A stretch of 64,000 nucleotides of DNA from Gammaproteobacteria bacterium (lineage in GTDB: Bacteria > Pseudomonadota > Gammaproteobacteria > Eutrophobiales > Eutrophobiaceae). Made by a program: the position numbers and the translations under genes. Shown here one piece after another: positions 1,260 through 17,304 of the stretch. Every line of letters begins with the position of its first letter. Position 1 is the stretch's first letter. Below the pieces are notes generated by a model. That model searched no databases, was not told the DNA's origin, and worked only from the letters and a program-made list of their open reading frames with translations. Where the stretch lies: NCBI GenBank assembly GCA_965202915.1, contig OZ241847.1, positions 2,194,242 to 2,258,241 of the forward strand. Reading direction: 5' to 3'.

Positions 1260-3146
1260 GTGAGTAGGCAATCAAATTTCAATGCCAGAAAACGCGGCAA
1301 CAGGAACCGACGCCGGCAAGCCAAATCGCAACCGGTTTCGCCAACAAGCTCAAAGCCATCAGCGACAATATCAGCAAGGGAAAGTATCCATATTACCCCG
1401 GCGCCGCACGGGCCGGAGTCACCCGTCTCCGCCGCGGCACCGGAAGCCGCCATCGCAACCGTATTCGCGCTGCCGGCACTATGCCTGTTAATCACCCTCA
1501 GTTACCTGCCCGCAACCTGGGCGGGGTTGGTGTGGGACGACGTCGTACTGACGATGGCCCAACCGTTGCAACATCTGTCCGGCCTATGGGATATCTGGTT
1601 CGCGCCCCGTTCCCTTTCCCAGTTTGAGGGACACTACTGGCCGCTTCTCTATACGTCTTTCTGGCTGGAGAATCGATTGTGGGGCGTCACCCCGGTCGGC
1701 TATCATATTGTCAACCTTGTACTACATGGCTTGGTCACAGTACTGCTATGGCGCCTGTTACTAAGGCTGGCCGTTCCCGGTGCCTGGTTTGCGGCGGCGG
1801 TGTTCGCGGTACATCCCCTGCACGTGGAGTCCGTGGCATGGATCATCGGACGCAAGGACGTGCTGGCCTCACTGTTTTATCTGGCCTGCGTGCTGAGTTA
1901 CCTGCATTTCATCGAGGCCCGGCGGCGCCGGTTTTATGCCGCGGCACTGGCACTGTTCATGGCGGGTCTGTTGTGCAAATCCATCCTGGTCACGCTGCCC
2001 GTATCGCTACTGATCTGGCACTGGTGGCAACAGGGGCGCGTGACGCCGGCCGACGTGCGCAGAGTGCTGCCGTTCCTGCTGCTGGGGCTGTGCGTCACGA
2101 TCGCCGACGTCTTGTTCTACAAGAGCAGGGATCCCACCGCCTTTGACTATTCAATCGTTGAACGGCTACTGATCGCGGCGCAGGCATTGTGGTTCTACCT
2201 GGGAAAACTGGTCTGGCCGACGCAACTGGCGGTCATTTACCCGCGCTGGGAGGTCGGCGTCGCCAACCCGCTGGCCTGGGGGTGTTTGATGGCCGCCTTC
2301 GCTGCGGTGGCGGCGCTGTGGTTCGGGCGCCACCGCATCGGTCGGGGGCCGCTGGCGGGTGCACTGTTCTTCGTGGTGACGCTGTCGCCGACGCTGGGCT
2401 TCGTGGACTATGGCTACATGCTGTACTCCTTTGTCGCCGACCGCTACCAATACTTGGCCGGGGCCGGTGTGATTGCAACACTGGCCGCAGCCGTAACCCT
2501 GGGCATGGGCAGACTGCCGGGCGCATACCGGCGCGGAGCGCAGGGCATGGCGGTGCTGCCGCTGGCCGCACTGGGCGTCATCACCTGGAACCAGGCGGGA
2601 ATCTACCGGGACAACTACACTTTTTACAGCCACGTCCTCTCTCTCAACCCGCAGGCCCGCTTCGCCCACCACAGTATCGGCCTGGAGTATCAAAAGCAGG
2701 GCCGCCACGAAGAGGCACTTGCCGCTTTTGAAACCGACTATCGTCTTGCCCCGGAGCAGCCGTCCCCACGGGTGCGCATGAGCAAGGCCCAGACCAGCAT
2801 CGGAACGTCGCTTGCGGCACTGGGCCGGATCCAGGAAGCGGAGGAGCACTTCCGGCGCGGGGTTGAGATCGCCCCGGACTTTCCGGGGGCCTACGATCAT
2901 CTGGGCGGGTTCCTGATCACGCACAAGCGTTACCGGGAGGCCCTCGAAGTTTTTCAAGCCGTCATCACCATAACGCCCGGCAATGCAAGGTTTCACGTCG
3001 GCCTGGGGGTCTCGCAGGCGGGCTTGGGACGGCTGGATGAGGCCTTGCAGAGCTACGAGCGGGCGCTGTTGATAGACCCCTTGCAGGAGCAGGCGCTAAG
3101 CAATCGCGCCAGCCTGTTGAAGTTCAGAGAGAGTGGCGGCGGATAG
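1260..3146 (+). CDS. Membrane glycosyltransferase-like protein with a DUF1736 domain and C-terminal TPR repeats (TMTC-like, paralog 1). A GTG start is predicted.
   Basis: 628 aa. It has a K/R-rich N-terminal tail, several TM segments with GHYWPLLYTSFWLE...GYHIVNLVLHGL...AVHPLHVESVAWIIGRKD (DUF1736-like), and TPR-like repeats in the C-terminal third. GC looks well above the backbone. Confidence 0.7.
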   Translation: MSRQSNFNARKRGNRNRRRQAKSQPVSPTSSKPSATISARESIHITPAPHGPESPVSAAAPEAAIATVFALPALCLLITLSYLPATWAGLVWDDVVLTMAQPLQHLSGLWDIWFAPRSLSQFEGHYWPLLYTSFWLENRLWGVTPVGYHIVNLVLHGLVTVLLWRLLLRLAVPGAWFAAAVFAVHPLHVESVAWIIGRKDVLASLFYLACVLSYLHFIEARRRRFYAAALALFMAGLLCKSILVTLPVSLLIWHWWQQGRVTPADVRRVLPFLLLGLCVTIADVLFYKSRDPTAFDYSIVERLLIAAQALWFYLGKLVWPTQLAVIYPRWEVGVANPLAWGCLMAAFAAVAALWFGRHRIGRGPLAGALFFVVTLSPTLGFVDYGYMLYSFVADRYQYLAGAGVIATLAAAVTLGMGRLPGAYRRGAQGMAVLPLAALGVITWNQAGIYRDNYTFYSHVLSLNPQARFAHHSIGLEYQKQGRHEEALAAFETDYRLAPEQPSPRVRMSKAQTSIGTSLAALGRIQEAEEHFRRGVEIAPDFPGAYDHLGGFLITHKRYREALEVFQAVITITPGNARFHVGLGVSQAGLGRLDEALQSYERALLIDPLQEQALSNRASLLKFRESGGG

Positions 3147-3391
3147 TGCTAAAGGGCTCAAGATAAATATATTCTGCGCGGCAAAGCGGGAACATCGGCC
3201 AATAACACCGAGGAAAGGCATCACACACCACAACCAGATCGTGGCCATTCACGCCGACCAAGAGCGAATGAACCGGCAGGTACTCACACCCCACCTCAAA
3301 AGACCAGTTGTCATTGAACGACATATTCAAGATTCCGATCTTACGATTCGGATGGTTTCGGTGATAATGGTGGGCAGGGGGGCAGGGTCAC

Positions 3392-3841
3392 TCATATTCT
3401 CTTTTGTGGCTTCTCCAGCATTTTTCCAAGCTGATTCAGTTTTCTGTTAAGAAGTTGCCCGTCTTTTAGCTGACATTCCCATATCCGCAATACTTTCCAT
3501 CCGTTGTTTTTAAGCGTCTTGTTTACCAGCCTGTCACGTTTCTTGTTGGCATATATTTTTTTAACCCAAAAATCTCTGTTGTTTTGGGGAACTTGGCCGT
3601 GCTTTGGGCAATCATGCCAGAAACATCCATCCATAAAGATCGCAAGCTTACTGTTTGGAAATACAATGTCTGGCTTGCCGAAAATCGGGTATCTGCGTCG
3701 CCATCCTATCACATGATTTCGCTTCAATATTTTAAGCAGTTTCCCTTCGGTTGATTTGTTTCCAGTAGAACGCACCTTACCCATAATCCATGAACGTTTT
3801 TCTTTTGAATAGACGTCAACCATTTTTCTTGACGTTGTCAA
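3392..3841 (-). CDS. vsr: Very-short-patch-repair endonuclease Vsr.
   Basis: 149 aa. Canonical Vsr motifs are present: RSWIMGKVRSTGNKSTE...RYPIFGKPDIVFPNSKLAIFMDGCFWHDCPKH. It overlaps the upstream GHKL gene by 26 nt. GC is low. Confidence 0.9.
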   Translation of the reverse strand: MTTSRKMVDVYSKEKRSWIMGKVRSTGNKSTEGKLLKILKRNHVIGWRRRYPIFGKPDIVFPNSKLAIFMDGCFWHDCPKHGQVPQNNRDFWVKKIYANKKRDRLVNKTLKNNGWKVLRIWECQLKDGQLLNRKLNQLGKMLEKPQKRI

Positions 3842-5477
3842 GCCTAAACAATAAAAATGAAATTAGACTTAGAATATCAAGGCAACTATTTTCTGGAAAT
3901 AATATATTTGATGTTGTCCTAGGTTCATGGTGCGTTGGATTTCTGAATGCTTGCACCAAACCAACTGAAAGAAATTGTTGACCCCTTTGCATGTTAAGTT
4001 CTGTGTCGTCGGAAAGGTCTGAAATTTGAAGTATTGGAAGCCTGGTTATTGTTGTTCTCCCTCTCTCGTTGTGTGATTCAAAACTAAAAGATTTATGCAT
4101 CAAATCAGTAGATGAATAATTAACACCAGCCTTATCTCTAATTTCCCTTTCATAAATCACCACTCCCTCTTTTGCAGCATCCAGATATCGGGCATTTTTA
4201 TAATCTTCGTACAGTCGATCCCTGATAAGCTGATGCAAATTTCTCCAATGATAATAAGGGTAAGAAGGTATAAGTTTTTTAAACTCGACAAACAGCCGAT
4301 TTGATTCAATAGTTTCTATTTCAGGAAAATCTTCAATCAGTTTTTCAGTAATAACCTCAATACTATTCTGAATTTCCTCCGGCATAGAATTTTTCCAGTC
4401 TTCCAGACCAATATCGCCAAGGCTGTTATCAACCTCGGCTATTTTCTTTTCTTTACGCTTTCTACGCCAATCCAATTGAACGAACTGGACACATTTCTCA
4501 AGATATGTATGAAGTTTGCTAGTTTGTAAATACCCCCAGTTTAGGTTTTGTCTGTTAGTGGAAATTACGTCCTCTGAAAAATCTTCTATAAAATCCACTT
4601 CCAACCATCCCGTCATATAAGAAAAGAAATGACTGGACGTGCTATCAGAAAATTGATAAGGAGATTGCACGAGTTTCCCCCGCGAAAACAAAGAAATACC
4701 CCTTGAATCAAATCTTGGTGCAATGGGCTTTTCAGGCGTAATGATCTTTCCCTGAATCTCAGACCGGTGCTCATAATCTGATTCTATGTTTGAAAAATCC
4801 TCGGGGAAATTCCAAGAAAATTCTTCACCAAATGCGGAGAAGTGCATATCATTGGACAACATTACCGGGTCTTCATCGTTACGCCTTACGGTAACGGAAA
4901 AATCTTCATCGAAAATAAAAAACCTTGCTATGCTGTTGGCAAGAAATTTTTCCGAAAAATCAGATTCTCTATTGATGTTTGTAAGTATTATTTGAGTTCC
5001 GGATTGACCATCTTCAACAATTTTGTCAATTACTTGCGGGATCATTAAATATTTCCCTCTCGTGGAGTTCATTAAATCATCCCAATCCATCGTAAAAATA
5101 TTTCTTTTTCCCTGTTGAACAGTGTTTACGGTAATTGTCCGAACAATCCCAAAGAATGAAAGCTTGCCCAAACCCTTTTTACCGATAACCTTCCTACCTC
5201 TCGGAGTCAACTCTTCTCCATCTTCTCTGCGGTTTCTCCCAATAACAAGAAATTTCTTGTCAATATCATTAAAAGACATTCCTGTTCCATTGTCCGTTAC
5301 AATAATTTCTTTTTCATTAATATCATTCAACTGCACTTCCACTTTTGTGGCATCTGCATCATATGCGTTGGCTAGCAGCTCACTTAAAACCGGAGGAAGA
5401 GTTGAGTACATACGAACTCCAAGGTGCTCTATAACTCTTGGGTCAAACTTCATCGTCAATTGATTAGATTCCAGCAT
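3816..5477 (-). CDS. GHKL (Bergerat-fold, HATPase_c) ATPase of the MORC/MutL-like type with no HisKA domain. It is a candidate restriction or repair-associated ATPase.
   Basis: 553 aa. Motif I is ELLANAYDADA, motif II is VTDNGTGMS and motif III is GKKGLGKLSFFG. There is no TM segment or phospho-acceptor region. It lies in an operon with dcm and vsr. Confidence 0.75.
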   Translation of the reverse strand: MLESNQLTMKFDPRVIEHLGVRMYSTLPPVLSELLANAYDADATKVEVQLNDINEKEIIVTDNGTGMSFNDIDKKFLVIGRNRREDGEELTPRGRKVIGKKGLGKLSFFGIVRTITVNTVQQGKRNIFTMDWDDLMNSTRGKYLMIPQVIDKIVEDGQSGTQIILTNINRESDFSEKFLANSIARFFIFDEDFSVTVRRNDEDPVMLSNDMHFSAFGEEFSWNFPEDFSNIESDYEHRSEIQGKIITPEKPIAPRFDSRGISLFSRGKLVQSPYQFSDSTSSHFFSYMTGWLEVDFIEDFSEDVISTNRQNLNWGYLQTSKLHTYLEKCVQFVQLDWRRKRKEKKIAEVDNSLGDIGLEDWKNSMPEEIQNSIEVITEKLIEDFPEIETIESNRLFVEFKKLIPSYPYYHWRNLHQLIRDRLYEDYKNARYLDAAKEGVVIYEREIRDKAGVNYSSTDLMHKSFSFESHNERGRTTITRLPILQISDLSDDTELNMQRGQQFLSVGLVQAFRNPTHHEPRTTSNILFPENSCLDILSLISFLLFRLDNVKKNG

Positions 5478-5489
5478 AATAAAACTATC

Positions 5490-6530
5490 TCAGCCCGAGT
5501 AAAAAGATTTCGCTATTCTGTAAGCAAGTTGCGGTGGCACTGCATTGCCTATTAGCTTGGCTGCGATCATTGAACTTTCACACGCAAAAACATAGTCTTC
5601 GCTGAACGTTTGTAGTGTTGCACCTTCTCTTAGGGACAATCCTCTGTTCTCCTCGGGATGGGCAAATCGACCATTTGAAATCCCGTTAAATCTCGTTGTA
5701 ATTGTTGAAGAGGGTTTATCCCACCTCAATCTCCCATAAACATCCCGAAAAGAATTATCTTTGCCTTTGTAGGTGTTCAATTGAAGCTCGGGGTCGTCTT
5801 TCCATGCGCTCCTTGTCCCGCCGTCTTTGGGTGTTAGCTTGAGCCGTCTCAAATTTTTTTCGGATAACGATGAAACTGTATCCATGAAATTATTTTCATC
5901 CTTATAACCGGATTGCAGAACGGGAAATCCATTATGGGTCCCTATAAATTCCTTCAATACGGATTCTTTCTCCGGTTGGGGAAGATCAATCGATTTTTTT
6001 ACCCTGGAAGCAATCAAGATAAATCTCTTTCTGCTTTGCGGAACTCCATAATACTTGGCATTGATAATATCCTCGACAATCTTATATTCTTTTTCAAGTT
6101 TCCGACAAAATTTGTCAAGCCCACTTTCCGCTTTGTTTCTTTTTATTCCCGGAACATTTTCTATAATTACATAACCCGGTTTGTAGTAACAGACAAAGCG
6201 CCAAAAATGATCAAGCAGTCCTCTGGTGTTCTCCGATGATCTTTTGTTCGTATTCAGGGTGGTCCAGTGCTGGCATGGGCTGCACCCTATAAAGATCAAA
6301 GAGTCGTCATTGCGTTTAATCCCACAATTTTTTTCCAGAAAAGTTCGTGGTGTGTCTTCTATATCTTTTAGAAAAAATTTTGTCCCCGGATGATTTGCCT
6401 CATATGTCTCTTTACAATCCTCATCCACATCTATCCCGGCAACAACCTTTACTCCGGCCATCTTTAACCCTTGGGACATGCCGCCGGCACCGCAAAAAAA
6501 ATCAACCGCTCTTAAGGATTTTTTTCTCAT
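5490..6530 (-). CDS. dcm: DNA (cytosine-5)-methyltransferase, Dcm-type.
   Basis: 346 aa. Motif I is DFFCGAGG, motif IV is GCSPCQHWT (PCQ), motif VI is ENV, motif VIII is QSRKRFILIA and motif X is GNAVPP. Confidence 0.9.
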   Translation of the reverse strand: MRKKSLRAVDFFCGAGGMSQGLKMAGVKVVAGIDVDEDCKETYEANHPGTKFFLKDIEDTPRTFLEKNCGIKRNDDSLIFIGCSPCQHWTTLNTNKRSSENTRGLLDHFWRFVCYYKPGYVIIENVPGIKRNKAESGLDKFCRKLEKEYKIVEDIINAKYYGVPQSRKRFILIASRVKKSIDLPQPEKESVLKEFIGTHNGFPVLQSGYKDENNFMDTVSSLSEKNLRRLKLTPKDGGTRSAWKDDPELQLNTYKGKDNSFRDVYGRLRWDKPSSTITTRFNGISNGRFAHPEENRGLSLREGATLQTFSEDYVFACESSMIAAKLIGNAVPPQLAYRIAKSFYSG

Positions 6531-8872
6531 TCGCCACCGCCCAAACTGGCTATTAATGTTACTATATGTGCCGCAACCGCGGACGAGGCAGCACGCACGA
6601 CAGAATCTTCGTCATATTCCTCCCGGCCATCGGAATTATCTTCGGAGTCACTGACAAGTCTCTTATACATTGCTAATGTGAGAATGCCCACCCCCACCCT
6701 GAAGCGGTGCCTGATGATCTCTCTCTTACCCTCATCTGATTCTTTGGAAATTAAGTACAAGAGATATTTATTGGCTTTGTTCACATATATGGTTAGCGTT
6801 TCTCCTCTGGACACATGACCGCCCGACTCTTCATTGTAGTTATGTTCATCCCAATATTCTTGCTCCACCCACTCAATATTCGGAAATTCCCGAGCCGGTC
6901 TCTCTTGATTGTTTGTGTCTGTTTCATCCCCGGGCGGGTTTCTTTGAGTTTCTTCCGCACTGGCAATTTTGATCATTACGTCAAAAGTCAGAGGATCTGT
7001 TCTTTCCGGGTTTGAGTCATCAAAGCCAAACTGAACGGCAATTTCATCTCCTACTTTTGCCCCCGCGGGAGTTATGACTTTTATTCGGAATTTTCCATTA
7101 CGCAGAGAACCCGAATGTGGCAATATATCAGGTGATGGGTGAATAAACTCCCCTCGGTTGGCATCTCTTATCAAATAATCATTTTGAGCGTCTGTTCTAC
7201 ATTCAATTCGTCTGTAAGAATTTATGGGAACACTCTTAACATTGCCCTCCTCCAAGTGCGTGGGAGTTAAATATGTGGGGAACAATTTCCCTTCATATTG
7301 ATCCTCACCTCCGGATGTTGCAATCTGACTGTCAACAATACTTCCAACATCAAATAGTTCTTGAAGATCCGGATTATCTTTAACAAGATTGGAAAGAAAT
7401 TCTTTATCGGTCTGCTCTTCTATTTGCTCGCTAATACGACGGTTTTTTATTTCTCTTGCATATTCCCTAAGTTCTCCGCTCCCGGCCAAGGCATCTATAA
7501 TAATTTTCTTTAGTTCTCTCGTGAGCCCTATGTCCGCCATTCTTTCCCTGTCCGATTTAAACACGGCGGCTCGCGCCGTATTATCCATGGCATTACAATC
7601 TATTTGAACAATTAAATGGTTTCTCAAATCATCCAGTCGCGCCTTCCGCAACAGACTGGCTCTGTCCGCAGATTGGGACTGACCGTTGATCGTGTAGAAC
7701 ATTCTGTATGGCTGTTTGCGCAAATAATCCTTCATTTTCTTCAACCCAAAATAAGATATTCGGATAGTCCCCAAATCCGAATTTTCAGAATTTTCAATTA
7801 CGTTTTCCAAGTCAACTTCGCTTTCCTCACTTCTTTCATCATCGGATTTGAGCACTATATTCATACCGGAAAAAGTTCTCGGTGCAATACCCTCCGCTCT
7901 AAGACCGCTCCTTGTGGGTTGAGCATCAAAATCATAAAGACGAACAGGCAAGGCACAATTTATAAGGTTGGTCGTAAGCGCATCATATAGTCCTATATCA
8001 ACCGCACGGGCACGAGGCCCTATATCGTATTCATATAACTTCACAATGCTGCCACCATTGATGACGACACCGATATCCTCTCTGCCAAAAGCCTTGATTT
8101 CATCGGTTTCAAAACAGGCAATTTCTCCGTCGGGACAAAAATACTCAACCACTGGCAAATCCTCTCCTTCTCGAACTCCTCTTACCCTTATCAAAGTCCA
8201 TCCCCATAGACCATCCGAACCGTAAGTGGTTCTTTTGGACAGAATAAACTTATACATCCCCGCCCTGATATCTGCTCGGGTACAAAAAGGTATGGATCCG
8301 GTGCTACCCATATTAAATCGACCTTGGACAAACGGAATGCCTTCCTTATTCTTTTCTCCAAGAGATAAAAAAGTTTTTCCAAAATCTGTATGATTTTGCC
8401 CCTCACCAAAATCAACTATCGTATAGTTTGGACAAATATCATTTCTCCTTCCTGTTCTCTTAATACCAATCAAAACACTTTTTTCAGCCAGATCAGTCCT
8501 TTGATTCGGGCTTAACAAAGCCAACCTGCCTTCTTGAACTTTGGGGAAAAAGTGTTTGACAGCCTCGCTCATATCTTGGGGAGCTGATTCACCATAAAAA
8601 TCTATTTGCTCTTCCTTTGCCCTGCGCATAAGGATTGCGTCAATGGAATTAATGATTAACTCTGCCAACGCACCGACTGGTTGGCTCGTTTGGACGCTCA
8701 CCCTGTCCCAATTTTTATCCGCGCCGCCGTAAGGCTTCCAATTTTCATCAGCGCTAAATTCAGGCTGGCTTTCCATGAACCGATTAACGTCGTCGGCTGA
8801 CAAAGCACCGAGAAACTTATTCGCTATTAACTTTGAAAGTGGGCTGTTGAAAAATTTTCTCGAATCATTCAT
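6527..8872 (-). CDS. Large protein with an N-terminal GHKL ATPase-like head and a ~550-aa uncharacterised C-terminal region. It is the first gene of the low-GC cassette.
   Basis: 781 aa. Bergerat motifs are AELIINSIDA (motif I), IVDFGEGQNH (motif II) and QGRFNMGSTGS (motif III). I recognised no motifs in the C-terminal region. It overlaps the dcm start by 4 nt, which suggests translational coupling. Confidence 0.6.
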   Translation of the reverse strand: MNDSRKFFNSPLSKLIANKFLGALSADDVNRFMESQPEFSADENWKPYGGADKNWDRVSVQTSQPVGALAELIINSIDAILMRRAKEEQIDFYGESAPQDMSEAVKHFFPKVQEGRLALLSPNQRTDLAEKSVLIGIKRTGRRNDICPNYTIVDFGEGQNHTDFGKTFLSLGEKNKEGIPFVQGRFNMGSTGSIPFCTRADIRAGMYKFILSKRTTYGSDGLWGWTLIRVRGVREGEDLPVVEYFCPDGEIACFETDEIKAFGREDIGVVINGGSIVKLYEYDIGPRARAVDIGLYDALTTNLINCALPVRLYDFDAQPTRSGLRAEGIAPRTFSGMNIVLKSDDERSEESEVDLENVIENSENSDLGTIRISYFGLKKMKDYLRKQPYRMFYTINGQSQSADRASLLRKARLDDLRNHLIVQIDCNAMDNTARAAVFKSDRERMADIGLTRELKKIIIDALAGSGELREYAREIKNRRISEQIEEQTDKEFLSNLVKDNPDLQELFDVGSIVDSQIATSGGEDQYEGKLFPTYLTPTHLEEGNVKSVPINSYRRIECRTDAQNDYLIRDANRGEFIHPSPDILPHSGSLRNGKFRIKVITPAGAKVGDEIAVQFGFDDSNPERTDPLTFDVMIKIASAEETQRNPPGDETDTNNQERPAREFPNIEWVEQEYWDEHNYNEESGGHVSRGETLTIYVNKANKYLLYLISKESDEGKREIIRHRFRVGVGILTLAMYKRLVSDSEDNSDGREEYDEDSVVRAASSAVAAHIVTLIASLGGGE

Positions 8873-8924
8873 TTATGAAAATTCACCTAGGTTTTGGTAT
8901 TTAATCAGTACATATCCATAACCG

Positions 8925-9420
8925 TTAAAAATCATTCCCGGAACCAAATGGCCACCCACTTGCGGAATAGGCCCGGATGTCATCATCGCCGGCATATTTG
9001 AACCAAAAAACCGCCGCCGGCACAACCGAACATTTGCCAAGCCGGCAGTTTTCCACCACCACCTTGAGCATGGCGTATTCGCCGTTGACTTGGCAGGCGA
9101 AAGCCAGCATATCGAATGCTACTTGATACGCCAAATGATGTCGAGTTTAATATATCCAGTTTGACCATTACGCATGTCGGTGATGTCGAGATCTTCACGC
9201 AGTGCTTTATCGCCATTGGTTAGGACCATTTTGTAACTGTATTTGTCGCCGCCCGCTAGAATCGCCGGACATACGGACTCCCCGAACCAAGAATGATAAC
9301 ATTAGCTCCCTCTACAATCCAGGTATTTCCCAACGCCTGTCCTTCCAGAACACCTATCGACCAAACCATCGGTTACTGACAGAACAACATCTACGGACGT
9401 GGCGACAGCGGTAATTGGGT
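8925..9420 (-). pseudogene. Degraded ORF fragments (frameshifted remnants) at the boundary between the low-GC cassette and the second TMTC-like gene.
   Basis: Reverse-strand reading gives ...ILAGGDKYSYKMVLTNGDKALREDLDITDMRNGQTGYIKLDII* and then, in another frame, ...KVVVENCRLGKCSVVPAAVFWFKYAGDDD... The fragments are short and out of frame, and I recognised no family. Confidence 0.3.
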
Positions 9421-9788: not shown

Positions 9789-11648
9789 ATGGCGGCCCGA
9801 AAAAACCGAAACAAGGCCCGGCGCAGGCAAATGAAGCTGCAAACCACCGCCAGGCGCCCCGGCACGGTGCGTAGCCGGACCGGCCCCGTACCCATCAAAT
9901 CGTCGCCGGGCGGGTTGCAATCGCTTTTTTCCGGGCTCAAGCGGAGCGTACTTCACGGGGACCCGATCCCACCCGCACTCGCGGCCACGGCGCTGTGGCT
10001 GCTGATACTCATCAGTTACCTGCCCGCGACCTGGGCCGGTTTCGTGTGGGACGACTTCGCGTTCACGGAGGCCGAACAGGTACTGCGCCCATCCGGTCTT
10101 TGGGATATCTGGTTCAAGCCGCACTCGCTGCAGAATGAAGGCCATTACTGGCCGCTCCTCTATACGACCTTCTGGCTGGAGCACAAGTTGTGGGGGCTGG
10201 ACCCGACCGGTTATCATATCGTCAACCTGCTGCTGCACGGGTTGACCACGCTGTTGTTGTGGCGCCTGCTGCTGCGGCTGGCCGTGCCGGGCGCCTGGTT
10301 CGCGGCGGCGGTGTTCGCCGTGCACCCCCTGCACGTGGAGTCGGTGGCATGGGTTATCGGACGCAAGGACGTGCTGGCGGGGCTGTTCTCCGTGGCCTGC
10401 GTGCTGAGCTATCTGCGTTTCGTGGAAGCTGGTCGCCGCGCACGCTATACGCACTACTTTCGGGCACTGGCGCTGTTCGTGGCGGGACTGTTGAGCAAAT
10501 CCATTGTCGTCACCCTGCCGGTGTCGCTGTTGATCTGGCACTGGTGGAAGCAGGGTCGCGTAGCCGTGACCGACGCACTGAGGACGCTGCCGTTCCTGCT
10601 GCTGGGGCTCGGCATCACGATCATCGACTGGTGGTACTACAAGGACCGGGAAGAGATTGTCCTGGAGGACTACTCGTTGATCGAGCAGACGCTGAACGCG
10701 GCGCACGCGCTGTGGTTCTACGTTGGCAAACTGGTCTGGCCGGCGGAACTGGCAGTCATCTACCCGCGCTGGGAAATCAACGTCAGCGAGCCACTGGCCT
10801 GGGCGTATCTGGTCACCGCCGTCGCGGTGGTGTGGCTGCTGTGGTTCTACCGCGACCGCATTGGCCGGGGGCCGCTGGCGGGGGTGCTGTTCTTCGTGGT
10901 GACGCTATCACCGACCCTGGGGTTCGTCGAGTACGGTTTCATGCAGTTCTCGCTGGTCGCCGACCGCTATCAGTACCTGGCCGGGATCGGAGTGACGGCG
11001 GGCCTCGTGGCCGCCGCGGCCCGCGTTGCAGGCCGGCTGTCGGGTACGCCGGCGAGGGGCGTACAGGCCGCGGCGGTGCTGCTGCTGGTCGTGCTGGGAA
11101 CCATCAGTTGGAACCAGGCGGGCATCTACCGCGACAACTTCACGTTCTACCAGCATATCATCGCTCTCAACCCGCAGGCCAGGAACGCCTGGTACAACCT
11201 TGGCAGAGAGTATTCCATGCAGGGCCGCACGCAGGATGCGCTGGCCGCGTATCTCACCGCCGGCGAGCAGCGCCCCGACCACGTCTGGGCGCATATCGGC
11301 GCCGGGCAGATGGCCGCGGAACTGGGAAGGCTCGCCGAGGCGGAGATGTACCTGCAACGCGCGCTTGCGGTTGACCCGAGTTTCCCGGAAGCCCTCAACA
11401 ATATGGGAGCGCTGCGGCTCAGACAAAAACGCTACAGCGAGGCGCTCGAACTCTTTGAGACCCTGATTGAGATGCAGCCCGAGTACGCCAAGGTTTATTC
11501 TGGCATAGGCGTGGCCCTGGCCGGACTCAGGCGGTTTGAAGAGGCGTTGCGGAGTTTTGACCGCGCGCTTGAACTGGACCCGTCACTGGAAGAGGCGCGG
11601 GTCAACCGCGAGCACGTATTGCGGAACTCCAAAAGCGAGAGCAGGTAA
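9789..11648 (+). CDS. Membrane glycosyltransferase-like protein with a DUF1736 domain and C-terminal TPR repeats (TMTC-like, paralog 2).
   Basis: 619 aa. It has the same architecture as the 1260..3146 product, about 60-70% identical across the TM core (GHYWPLLYTTFWLE...AVHPLHVESVAWVIGRKD), with a diverged N-tail and TPR region. Its stop overlaps the start of the next gene. Confidence 0.75.
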   Translation: MAARKNRNKARRRQMKLQTTARRPGTVRSRTGPVPIKSSPGGLQSLFSGLKRSVLHGDPIPPALAATALWLLILISYLPATWAGFVWDDFAFTEAEQVLRPSGLWDIWFKPHSLQNEGHYWPLLYTTFWLEHKLWGLDPTGYHIVNLLLHGLTTLLLWRLLLRLAVPGAWFAAAVFAVHPLHVESVAWVIGRKDVLAGLFSVACVLSYLRFVEAGRRARYTHYFRALALFVAGLLSKSIVVTLPVSLLIWHWWKQGRVAVTDALRTLPFLLLGLGITIIDWWYYKDREEIVLEDYSLIEQTLNAAHALWFYVGKLVWPAELAVIYPRWEINVSEPLAWAYLVTAVAVVWLLWFYRDRIGRGPLAGVLFFVVTLSPTLGFVEYGFMQFSLVADRYQYLAGIGVTAGLVAAAARVAGRLSGTPARGVQAAAVLLLVVLGTISWNQAGIYRDNFTFYQHIIALNPQARNAWYNLGREYSMQGRTQDALAAYLTAGEQRPDHVWAHIGAGQMAAELGRLAEAEMYLQRALAVDPSFPEALNNMGALRLRQKRYSEALELFETLIEMQPEYAKVYSGIGVALAGLRRFEEALRSFDRALELDPSLEEARVNREHVLRNSKSESR

Positions 11649-15956: not shown

Positions 15957-16329
15957 TCGTAATATTTACTCAGTAGTGGACCAATCCACCGCTGTTTTTT
16001 CTTTGATAATACTCTGCACTTTTTTGATTGGATATAGCGAGTTCAAGGATGTGTTTGACTCACTGCTAAAAGACAACCCTATCTTCCACATGTCCCGACA
16101 AGCGGCCCTATTCAACCAAAAACTGGCTGACACGTCCCCGCATCGGGGTTGGCTACCCAAATACAACGCCATCCGACCTCATAAAGGAGTTGGACTCAAA
16201 ACACCCGTATGGATTACTATCGATAACAACAAAATTTATACAATATGTGGTGGACCCCATACATAGAGTAGTAGAAATATCGCTATGTGGGAGTATATAT
16301 GCAGATAAGGCATAGGGAGTTTCCTAATA

Positions 16330-17304
16330 ATGAAATTAGATGAATTAAATAAATACAGAAGGCTAATACTCATTATTAGTGTTATTGCCTTTTCTCTTTT
16401 GTTAATTGGTGTGTCTGAGGTCTTTCTAGCCAGATATATGGGCCTGGGTGAGCCTGTACTTTATGACTCATCTCCAATATACGGGTATAGGCCATTGCCT
16501 GGAAAAACATACTCTAGATTTTATGGAAAGGAGGTAAAGTTTAATAATCTGGGGCTAAGGTCTGAATCTGATTGGAACGAAGATATTGAAGATAAAATAC
16601 TTTTTCTTGGTGATTCCGTAACTTATGGAGGTTCTTATATTAGCAATACGGAATTGTTTTCTTATCTATCTGTAAAAAATCTGGGAAACAATTACGTTAG
16701 CGGGAATGCCGGGGTAAATGCATGGGGGGTTGAAAATATATATGGTCTTATTGTCGAGTCAGGGTTCATGCCCGCGGGAATTTACGTCACAGTTATTCCA
16801 GAATCTGATTTTTACAGAGGCTTGACTAGAATACACGGGCTCCCTTTCTATAATGAGGATCCAAAATATGCTTTTCAGGAGCTATTTGATTATTTTATTA
16901 TTAATAAAAATAATAATAAGCGATACAAAGGTTGGCAACACTATGCTGATAAAAACACAAAGGCTTTCGTTATAGAAAAAGCAGTGAAAAAACTAAAGAT
17001 GATCGATGTATTGTTAAAGGAAAAGGGGTATAAGCACTTAATCTTTATTTCTCCCAAAAAAAGGCAAGTGATAAAACATTTGGAGAAAGATCTTCTGAAA
17101 AAAGATCCATTGGTTAAAAAATTTCTAACGAAACATGGGCTGTTTCCTTTCTATATAAAAGATGAAATAAATAAGCTTGATTTATTGAGGGAGGAAATAG
17201 AGGGTATCTATCATGGCGACCATGACAACATACATCTTTCAGAAAAGGGCCATAGGCTCTGGGCAAGGATTATAACAAATAAGTTACAAGAGTTACTGCT
17301 TTAG
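16330..17304 (+). CDS. SGNH/GDSL-family hydrolase with an N-terminal TM anchor.
   Basis: 324 aa. FLGDSVTYGG is a GDSx block I, and an N-terminal hydrophobic segment is present. The gene is AT-rich. Confidence 0.6.
   Translation: MKLDELNKYRRLILIISVIAFSLLLIGVSEVFLARYMGLGEPVLYDSSPIYGYRPLPGKTYSRFYGKEVKFNNLGLRSESDWNEDIEDKILFLGDSVTYGGSYISNTELFSYLSVKNLGNNYVSGNAGVNAWGVENIYGLIVESGFMPAGIYVTVIPESDFYRGLTRIHGLPFYNEDPKYAFQELFDYFIINKNNNKRYKGWQHYADKNTKAFVIEKAVKKLKMIDVLLKEKGYKHLIFISPKKRQVIKHLEKDLLKKDPLVKKFLTKHGLFPFYIKDEINKLDLLREEIEGIYHGDHDNIHLSEKGHRLWARIITNKLQELLL

Follow-up and report, generated by a model that had tools for sequence, protein, structure and literature searches.

A horizontally acquired gammaproteobacterial cassette joins a cytosine methylase and Vsr to two GHKL ATPases, one from an uncharacterised family

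Gene content and composition of the cassette

We analysed a 64,000-nucleotide stretch of the genome of a Gammaproteobacteria bacterium of the Eutrophobiaceae (GenBank assembly GCA_965202915.1, contig OZ241847.1, positions 2,194,242 to 2,258,241; hereafter the window), which carries a compact cassette of four genes on one strand (Table 1). These encode a 781-amino-acid (aa) ATPase that we call R781, a Dcm-type C5 methyltransferase, an ATPase fused to a HEPN domain (GHKL-HEPN) and Vsr. The arrangement is operon-like, with a 4-nt overlap between R781 and dcm, a 12-nt gap between dcm and the GHKL-HEPN gene, and a 26-nt overlap between the latter and vsr. A preliminary description, made from the sequence alone, had reported four co-directional and overlapping or tightly spaced genes here, and the open reading frames (ORFs) lie exactly where it placed them; all of the motifs that it quoted are found in the translations, and both large proteins are GHKL ATPases, as it had proposed.

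The cassette differs sharply from its immediate surroundings in base composition, with a GC content of 0.411 (vs. 0.62–0.64 in the flanking genes) and a GC content at third codon positions (GC3) of 0.34–0.43 (vs. 0.75–0.82). The AT-shifted island of the preliminary description is therefore real, but the contrast on which it was based is exaggerated, because the flanks are unusually GC-rich relative to the window as a whole (GC 0.509). Even so, the cassette lies below every 5.5-kb stretch elsewhere in the window (minimum 0.439, standard deviation 0.028). A promoter and terminator scan returned sites no more frequently than in shuffled sequence.

Table 1 Features of the cassette and its borders (window coordinates).
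Feature	Coordinates	Strand	Basis
Transferred segment, ~6.0 kb (cassette and short flanks)	3261..9259		blastn homology; GC 0.417
hemB (porphobilinogen synthase) 3'-end remnant, frameshifted	8950..9259 (start approximate)	minus	alignment to hemB of L003, L009 and L010
R781 gene, 781 aa	8872..6527	minus	ORF call
R781 GHKL (Bergerat) + S5/transducer ATPase module, aa ~60–445	7538..8695	minus	
R781 C-terminal module, aa 505–781: Ig-like beta-sandwich, small alpha/beta unit, long helical hairpin	6530..7360	minus	
Dcm gene, 346 aa	6530..5490	minus	ORF call
GHKL-HEPN gene, 553 aa	5477..3816	minus	ORF call
HEPN (Ymh, PF09509/TIGR02391) domain of the 553-aa protein	3843..4244	minus	profile matches and Rx4H motif
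Vsr gene, 149 aa, TTG start	3841..3392	minus	ORF call

The Dcm, Vsr and GHKL-HEPN proteins

The 346-aa protein is a C5 methyltransferase (PF00145, E 5.9e-52, 177.5 bits with a cut-off of 22; TIGR00675, 138.1 bits with a cut-off of 100.65), and its translation contains the motifs FCGAGG (I), SPCQ (IV), ENV (VI), QSRKR (VIII) and GNAVPP (X). It is 55% identical to the NmeAI-type orthologue of Neisseria gonorrhoeae, target-recognition region included, 49–53% identical to methylases that are paired with GHKL-HEPN only, and 32–38% identical to R781-paired methylases of betaproteobacteria. The 149-aa protein is Vsr, matching positions 1–119 of the 119 in TIGR00632 (115.6 bits, cut-off 97.85) as well as PF03852 (E 3.3e-16). 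Read directly from the sequence, its translation contains 'GKPDIVF' and 'DGCFWHDCPKHG'; the former corresponds to the motif KPD(I/V), and the Cys/His cluster 'DGCFWH..C' appears as 'FMDGCFWHDCPKHG'. By analogy with Escherichia coli Vsr, we take these motifs to hold the catalytic Asp and the Cys/His cluster, respectively. Together with the HATPase_c_3 match of the 553-aa protein, the TIGR00632 and PF00145 matches uphold the Vsr, Dcm and 553-aa GHKL assignments of the preliminary description.

The 553-aa protein carries HATPase_c_3 at its N-terminus (aa 28–159, E 1.8e-22, 80.3 bits with a cut-off of 25) and Hypoth_Ymh at its C-terminus (PF09509, aa 412–545, E 5.4e-19, 68.7 bits with a cut-off of 25; TIGR02391, 65.4 bits with a cut-off of 39.45). 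Ymh is a HEPN family with a predicted RNase site, Rx4-6H (Anantharaman et al. 2013, PMC3710099). In the corresponding Rx4H motif of our protein, 'RNPTHH', R512 is invariant and H517 is present in at least 90% of 24 sequences spanning 44–74% identity, and the Ymh domain also matches the PD-Lambda-3_B and pAgo-associated HEPN models of PADLOC. The preliminary description overlooked the HEPN domain.

The N-terminal two-thirds of the 553-aa protein resembles a known restriction enzyme family: residues 8–379 match positions 2–397 of the 659-position BbrUII/HgiDII profile NF050001 (E 3.6e-66). The protein also matches a PADLOC REase_II model at E 3.9e-32. The NF050001 score of 224 bits is below the equivalog cut-off of 550 and the family's C-terminal domain is not matched, whereas the full-length relatives L171 and L172 match positions 3–646. 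By these measures, the protein lies outside the BbrUII/HgiDII family proper, but its ATPase module is homologous to that of the family. Its S5 segment, 'GISLFSRGKLV', agrees with the MORC signature GhXhhpXXRhl except that K268 replaces the R. Domains, HEPN motif and gene neighbourhood all identify it as a paraMORC-Ymh (R.NmeAIP-type) GHKL-HEPN fusion. We also considered whether its ATPase domain and that of R781 are close paralogues and rejected the idea, since profile–profile alignment was limited to 12 columns of motif I and BLAST returned nothing.

R781 is the uncharacterised part of the cassette

Profile searches recovered GHKL, Dcm, HEPN and Vsr matches in the three downstream genes but no library match for the 781-aa protein, whether in Pfam, NCBIfam, PADLOC or PHROGs. 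Among the system components of PADLOC-DB v2.0.0, no family matched R781 at E values up to 0.1, and the one hit from a profile search against PDB sequences was spurious (E 0.57). Its close homologues, numbering more than 351, are all annotated 'hypothetical' and none has a Pfam domain; among 185,579 species genomes, 473 (from bacteria and archaea) carry a relative. A search of the literature found no description of the family, which is the truly uncharacterised part of the cassette.

R781 has GHKL motifs I (ExxxNxxD), II (DxGxG) and III (GxxGxG) and the Bergerat fold, and its best structural match is eukaryotic MORC3. Across 73 sequences, down to 27% identity, the invariant ATPase residues include E71/N75/D78 and D154/G156/G158 in motifs I and II, followed by F181-V-Q-G184, F186-N-M-G189 and G192, and then by N396/G397/Q398 and R442. 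The C-terminal module is conserved at T560, D561, Y566, R569, G574, G593, P664, W674, N698 and N701, with an invariant motif TD-x4-Y-x2-R, and these residues match no PD-(D/E)xK, HNH, PLD or GIY-YIG signature. Neither the type II restriction folds sought in R781 (PD-(D/E)xK, HNH, GIY-YIG, PLD and half-pipe) nor their catalytic motifs were found.

Two candidate identities for the C-terminal module were rejected: the alpha/beta unit at aa 655–710 is not a canonical ββα-Me fold, as no His is conserved there, and the module is not the C-terminal domain of HgiDII-like proteins (hhalign probability 0.1%). A profile of the module recruited 1080 clusters at 50% identity and almost always marks the end of proteins of 750–830 aa. 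Short forms of ~351–364 aa (P0243, P0278, P0284, P0301 and P0348) consist of this module alone and begin at a conserved S/D-R-D/E-R motif where the S5 domain ends; they could be split or broken genes (the only contig available, L170, is 2.4 kb long).

Horizontal transfer and assembly of the cassette

A blastn search aligned window positions 9259 to 3261 at 72–74% nucleotide identity to three metagenome-assembled genomes of different lineages (L003, L009 and L010), and at least seven further genomes, from different phyla, share the cassette order at 70–74% nucleotide identity. Since the gene order recurs across phyla, the cassette is not a chance arrangement. The order R781, Dcm, GHKL-HEPN, Vsr is found also in L003, L004, L005, L007, L009 and L010, and variants include a decayed copy (L011), a locus with both ATPases and no Vsr (L008) and an R781-Dcm-Vsr locus without GHKL-HEPN (L006). 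Among the hosts are Arenicellales, Nitrospirales, Thermodesulfobacteriota, Candidatus Spongiihabitans and Poriferihabitaceae, and many have names that mark them as sponge-associated.

The upstream end of the homologous segment indicates how it arrived. It ends in a hemB remnant that reads '...AGGDKYSYKM...' and then, in another frame, '...ACQVNGEYAMLK...', and that aligns with hemB in other genomes: an intact gene immediately preceding the cassette in L003 and L010, and a fragment in L009. Because the segment ends in this remnant while hemB is intact in L003 and L010, the segment was imported together with a piece of donor hemB. The remnant marks one border of the transferred DNA and shows that the cassette moved by recombination with donor flanks, not as a self-mobile element. 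A search for tRNA genes at window positions 1–20 kb found none, and the island has no convincing flanking direct or inverted repeats and no integrase.

A betaproteobacterial group of loci has a different order (R781, Vsr, Dcm, GHKL-HEPN) and a different type of Dcm, such that the methylases of the two R781/GHKL-HEPN unions are 33–38% and 72–78% identical, respectively, to that of the window. Compared with the window's GHKL-HEPN, those of either union show ~43% identity, a value that R781-free loci share. For its Dcm, GHKL-HEPN and Vsr trio, the window has its nearest counterparts in NmeAI-type trios without R781 (Dcm 52–55%). Given the two gene orders, the two Dcm types and GHKL-HEPN proteins that resemble the window's no more than R781-free ones do, sequence comparison suggests that R781 joined the Dcm/GHKL-HEPN module more than once, namely twice.

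In L007 (Thermodesulfobacteriota), the cassette is 70–75% identical to that of the window, but its Vsr is 39% and its GHKL-HEPN 51% identical, a pattern that indicates replacement of single genes inside the cassette.

The genes flanking the island, at 1260–3146 (+) and 9789–11648 (+), are paralogues of ~620 aa each, sharing an N-terminal membrane region ('LSYLPATWAG.VWDD...HYWPLLYT.FWLE') and TPR repeats. The island is located between these tandem paralogues, whose GC3 is very high (0.75–0.82), while most of the window has a GC content of ~0.50. From ~15.5 kb on, GC ranges from 0.38 to 0.55 (0.377 at 16001–17000), and positions 1–1250 have a GC content of 0.40–0.47 and no ORF of at least 85 aa. 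This patchy composition may reflect additional foreign segments.

Each ATPase travels with the methylase

We surveyed 80 metagenomic loci encoding GHKL-HEPN homologues 39–46% identical to that of the window. In 73 of them, a Dcm gene lay no more than 200 nt away, mostly on the upstream side and with an overlap of 4–25 nt, and four of the seven remaining loci end at a contig edge. Vsr was found in 26 loci and was absent from 54; R781 was found in one (L151). In Parcubacteria and Clostridium, the pair of Dcm and GHKL-HEPN is isolated among housekeeping genes. With Dcm near-universal and Vsr in a minority, the conserved unit is methylase plus ATPase-HEPN, with Vsr optional.

Downstream of one such pair, on a Clostridium sp. 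contig (L083:9187-13677), are genes for a 771-aa protein without a Pfam domain and for a NERD/ResIII helicase. We considered the 771-aa ORF as a possible R781 relative and rejected it, the two being unrelated by sequence comparison; with the helicase, it may represent another defence module.

These neighbourhoods bear on the possibility that the two ATPases divide the labour, with R781 as the sole restriction component acting on DNA and GHKL-HEPN as a suicide RNase like PrrC or RloC, held inactive by the intact restriction–modification (R-M) complex and released when a phage disables that complex. The same analogy has been proposed for paraMORC-Ymh proteins in R-M neighbourhoods (Anantharaman et al. 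2013, PMC3710099), and the conserved Rx4H motif and the PADLOC matches of the Ymh domain are consistent with it. However, in the 73 loci where GHKL-HEPN is paired with Dcm, with or without Vsr, there is no other restriction candidate, such that there would mostly be nothing for GHKL-HEPN to guard, and R781 accompanies it in just the one locus. We therefore consider this arrangement unlikely.

Close relatives of R781 (at least 40% identity) were examined at 32 genome loci (L002–L033). An adjacent Dcm was present in 27, Vsr in 19 and GHKL-HEPN in 12; of the 27 in which Dcm neighbours R781, 15 lacked GHKL-HEPN. Some have no further partner of any kind, Vsr included (L002/L013, L014, L020 and L026). 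R781+Dcm and R781+Vsr+Dcm units are bordered by genes for ribonucleotide reductase, transketolase, GreA or recombinase, so the units are self-contained. Because R781+Dcm pairs occur alone, R781 can serve as Dcm's only partner, the arrangement classically expected of an R gene. At L033, R781 is truncated and Dcm is retained, a direction of decay that fits R781 as a toxic partner. In the two-gene units that each GHKL gene forms with a C5 methylase on its own, the restriction or defence reading of the preliminary description finds its support.

GHKL ATPases work as dimers, and the preliminary description had raised the possibility that R781 and GHKL-HEPN pair as a heterodimer; in its strongest form, they would be an obligate, MutL-alpha-like heterodimer constituting the single restriction enzyme of the cassette. 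That 12 of the 32 close R781 loci have a dcm between the two GHKL genes, in two gene orders, is in line with such a pairing. We nonetheless find an obligate heterodimer barely credible, as each protein regularly occurs without the other (a single R781 gene among the 80 GHKL-HEPN loci, and more than half of the R781+Dcm loci without GHKL-HEPN), and their ATPase domains have only motif I in common.

The second reading in the preliminary description, a mobile methylation and very-short-patch repair module in which the GHKL proteins serve Vsr as its own dedicated, MutL-like activators where the host MutL is uncooperative, has a biochemical precedent in the stimulation of Vsr by MutL (PMC2715241, PMC6116569). 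The distribution of the genes makes it very improbable: the GHKL genes are linked to Dcm and not to Vsr, which is missing from most GHKL-HEPN loci and from the R781+Dcm pairs listed above. L006 combines R781, Dcm and Vsr without GHKL-HEPN, while L008 has both ATPases without Vsr. The reading also provides no repair-stimulating role for a HEPN RNase domain or an Ig-like module.

More distant R781 relatives (27–35% identity) have more varied surroundings. Eight alphaproteobacterial loci carry a divergent Dcm and Vsr, about ten relatives are beside N6/N4 methylases, and on a Halogeometricum plasmid, a relative adjoins a site-specific DNA methyltransferase. Many are in defence islands, among GmrSD, Mrr or EcoEI-R genes.

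Four distant relatives have a PIN-domain gene (~135 aa) directly upstream, with a tight or overlapping junction (L054:2403-2810, L059:595-993, L060:7469-7888 and L068:7487-7888), which suggests that some members of the R781 family use a separate nuclease partner. At seven other distant loci, in bacteria and in Methanoregula, the upstream position is occupied by a conserved gene of 340–410 aa with no Pfam or NCBIfam match (L040:6896-7948, L042:1183-2196, L045:6958-7974, L047:6985-8001, L052:2071-3159, L069:6825-7952 and L077:661-1899); in L038, a DGQHR (DndB/DpdB-like) protein takes this position.

Could the cassette be epigenetic rather than defensive, with R781 as a MORC-like reader or organiser of methylated DNA that compacts or silences it, or that loads or targets Dcm? 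The resemblance to MORC3, the lack of a nuclease fold and the occurrence of some distant relatives without a methylase would all be compatible with this, but we regard it as improbable. The cassette is a mobile, AT-shifted island that moves between phyla, distant relatives of R781 are found among defence genes (some translationally coupled to PIN nucleases), and the overlapping two-gene units resemble R-M systems, with the loss of R781 but not of Dcm at L033 fitting a toxic partner.

A two-module model of the cassette

We favour, with moderate confidence, the interpretation that the cassette is a horizontally acquired, 5-methylcytosine-based defence (or addiction) operon of R-M type, in which two modules share one methyltransferase. 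Four lines of evidence argue for a restriction or defence function: both ATPases track the methylase rather than Vsr, each suffices as Dcm's partner at other loci, the ATPase module of GHKL-HEPN has homologues in proven restriction enzymes, and the cassette shows the behaviour of a mobile island. The domain content, the conservation of ATPase and HEPN motifs, the operon structure, the independent pairing with Dcm and the horizontal transfer are direct observations.

In this model, the first module would be an NmeAI-type trio: Dcm would mark host DNA, GHKL-HEPN (paraMORC plus Ymh HEPN) would be the methylation-sensitive toxic or restriction component, and Vsr would repair the T:G mismatches that arise from 5-methylcytosine deamination. 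The second module would be R781, a MORC/MutL-like GHKL+S5 ATPase and a candidate for a methylation-sensitive 'R' component. Each ATPase may dimerise upon ATP binding around DNA that has no Dcm mark. The C-terminal module of R781, with its TD-x4-Y-x2-R motif, might then read the site, and R781 would inactivate unmarked DNA via an unrecognised catalytic site or ATP-driven clamping, while GHKL-HEPN would add a second, abortive layer by unleashing its RNase. Neither protein would respond to methylated host DNA. For both ATPases, we infer the DNA binding, methylation sensitivity and effector chemistry.

Several points weigh against this interpretation. We detected neither a nuclease fold nor a classical nuclease motif in R781, whose C-terminal part lacks invariant His or Lys residues as well as an acidic cluster, and the effector of GHKL-HEPN is a HEPN domain, known as an RNase and not a DNase; neither candidate 'R' component therefore has demonstrated DNA cutting. 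Vsr itself could be a source of nicking activity. Nearby methylases are missing for about half of the distant R781 relatives, so the R781 superfamily is not strictly an R-M family. The restriction activity of R.NmeAIP is only putative (PMC2441816), and our literature search found no experiment on any member of the R781 or GHKL-HEPN families.

We also put forward, tentatively, that R781 founds an undescribed and widespread MORC-like family that acts as the sole restriction partner of methyltransferases, either through a new cleaving or base-excising C-terminal domain or through neutralisation without cutting. Under the first option, the Ig-like C-terminal module (TD-x4-Y-x2-R, W674, N698 and N701) would cleave DNA or excise bases. 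Under the second, unmethylated foreign DNA would be clamped topologically or compacted at the expense of ATP, and R781 would, if so, be a prokaryotic counterpart of MORC-mediated silencing.

The link between GHKL/MORC-type ATPases and cytosine methylases has been known from comparative genomics since 2008, and the literature that we searched contained no biochemical mechanism for a nuclease-less, methylase-linked member. This cassette is a compact case, with one methylase, two GHKL proteins that are each the sole partner of Dcm elsewhere, and no DNase fold. The mechanism of R781 could reveal new restriction chemistry or bacterial MORC-like silencing and would bear on the proposed R-M origin of eukaryotic MORCs. 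The family merits a Pfam/NCBIfam model and inclusion in defence-system finders.

Comparison with known systems

The preliminary description judged the combination of two GHKL proteins, Dcm and Vsr to be no textbook system, which was an overstatement. Iyer et al. 2008 (PMC2292703) had already described operons of GHKL, Dcm and Vsr, some of which encode a pair of distinct GHKL proteins, the GHKL+Ymh architecture (R.NmeAIP) was reported by Orlowski and Bujnicki 2008 (PMC2441816), and paraMORC-Ymh fusions in R-M neighbourhoods were reported by Anantharaman et al. 2013 (PMC3710099). The interest of the cassette rests on R781 and not on its architecture. Dcm, GHKL-HEPN and Vsr match the NmeAI-type locus gene for gene.

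Among the closest known systems is this NmeAI-type locus of Neisseria, in which Dcm, GHKL-HEPN and Vsr follow one another as they do in the window; what the window has in addition is R781, placed upstream of dcm and overlapping it. M.NmeAI is a CCGG C5 methylase (PMC4676702; PMC7973814), and NmeAI is treated as a Vsr-containing R-M system (PMC7973814). Compared with the N. gonorrhoeae locus, the window's Dcm is 55% and its GHKL-HEPN 37% identical, and Vsr matches at E 6e-29. From the Dcm identity, CCGG would be the predicted target of the window's methylase. In the N. gonorrhoeae copy (L087, NZ_CP119142.1), Dcm and GHKL-HEPN are pseudogenised by a stop codon and frameshifts and Vsr is intact. 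PLSDB lists 2.17-Mb N. gonorrhoeae records as 'plasmids' that are evidently chromosomes.

BbrUII and HgiDII are type II enzymes with an N-terminal GHKL domain, the target GTCGAC and a C5 methylase partner. Their GHKL and middle module is homologous to that of the 553-aa protein, in which HEPN replaces their C-terminal domain of ~260 aa, whose fold is unassigned. On plasmids, full-length HgiDII-like genes show the overlapping Dcm-then-GHKL layout also seen for GHKL-HEPN. M.BbrII is essential in transposon sequencing of Bifidobacterium breve (PMC5514069), which implies that its GHKL-type R partner is active in vivo.

The MORC and paraMORC systems of Iyer et al. 2008 resemble the cassette in combining GHKL+S5 proteins with cytosine methylases and Vsr and in being sporadic and laterally mobile, but mostly include SF-II helicases and recognisable nucleases, and the cassette has neither. 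Published signatures set R781 apart from MORC and paraMORC2–5. In place of the MORC motif GhXhhpXXRhl, R781 has 'FYTINGQSQSADR', a MutL-like 'NG' turn with Q398, and it lacks the signatures of paraMORC2 (ExxxH in S5), paraMORC3 (restriction endonuclease fold), paraMORC4 (TIR) and paraMORC5 (C-terminal HxH). The N-terminal ATPase modules of eukaryotic MORC3/MORC2, SMCHD1 and MutL have only 11–13% sequence identity to R781, which has an Ig-like C-terminal module instead of a CW, coiled-coil, hinge or MutL C-terminal endonuclease domain.

A GHKL ATPase that controls an effector is known from GHKL-Shedu (VcSduA, formerly paraMORC3). VcSduA differs from the cassette in working without a methylase and in using a PD-(D/E)xK DUF4263 nuclease, a domain absent from R781 and GHKL-HEPN; its anti-phage activity has been shown, and mutations in its ATPase abolish defence (PMC12137116).

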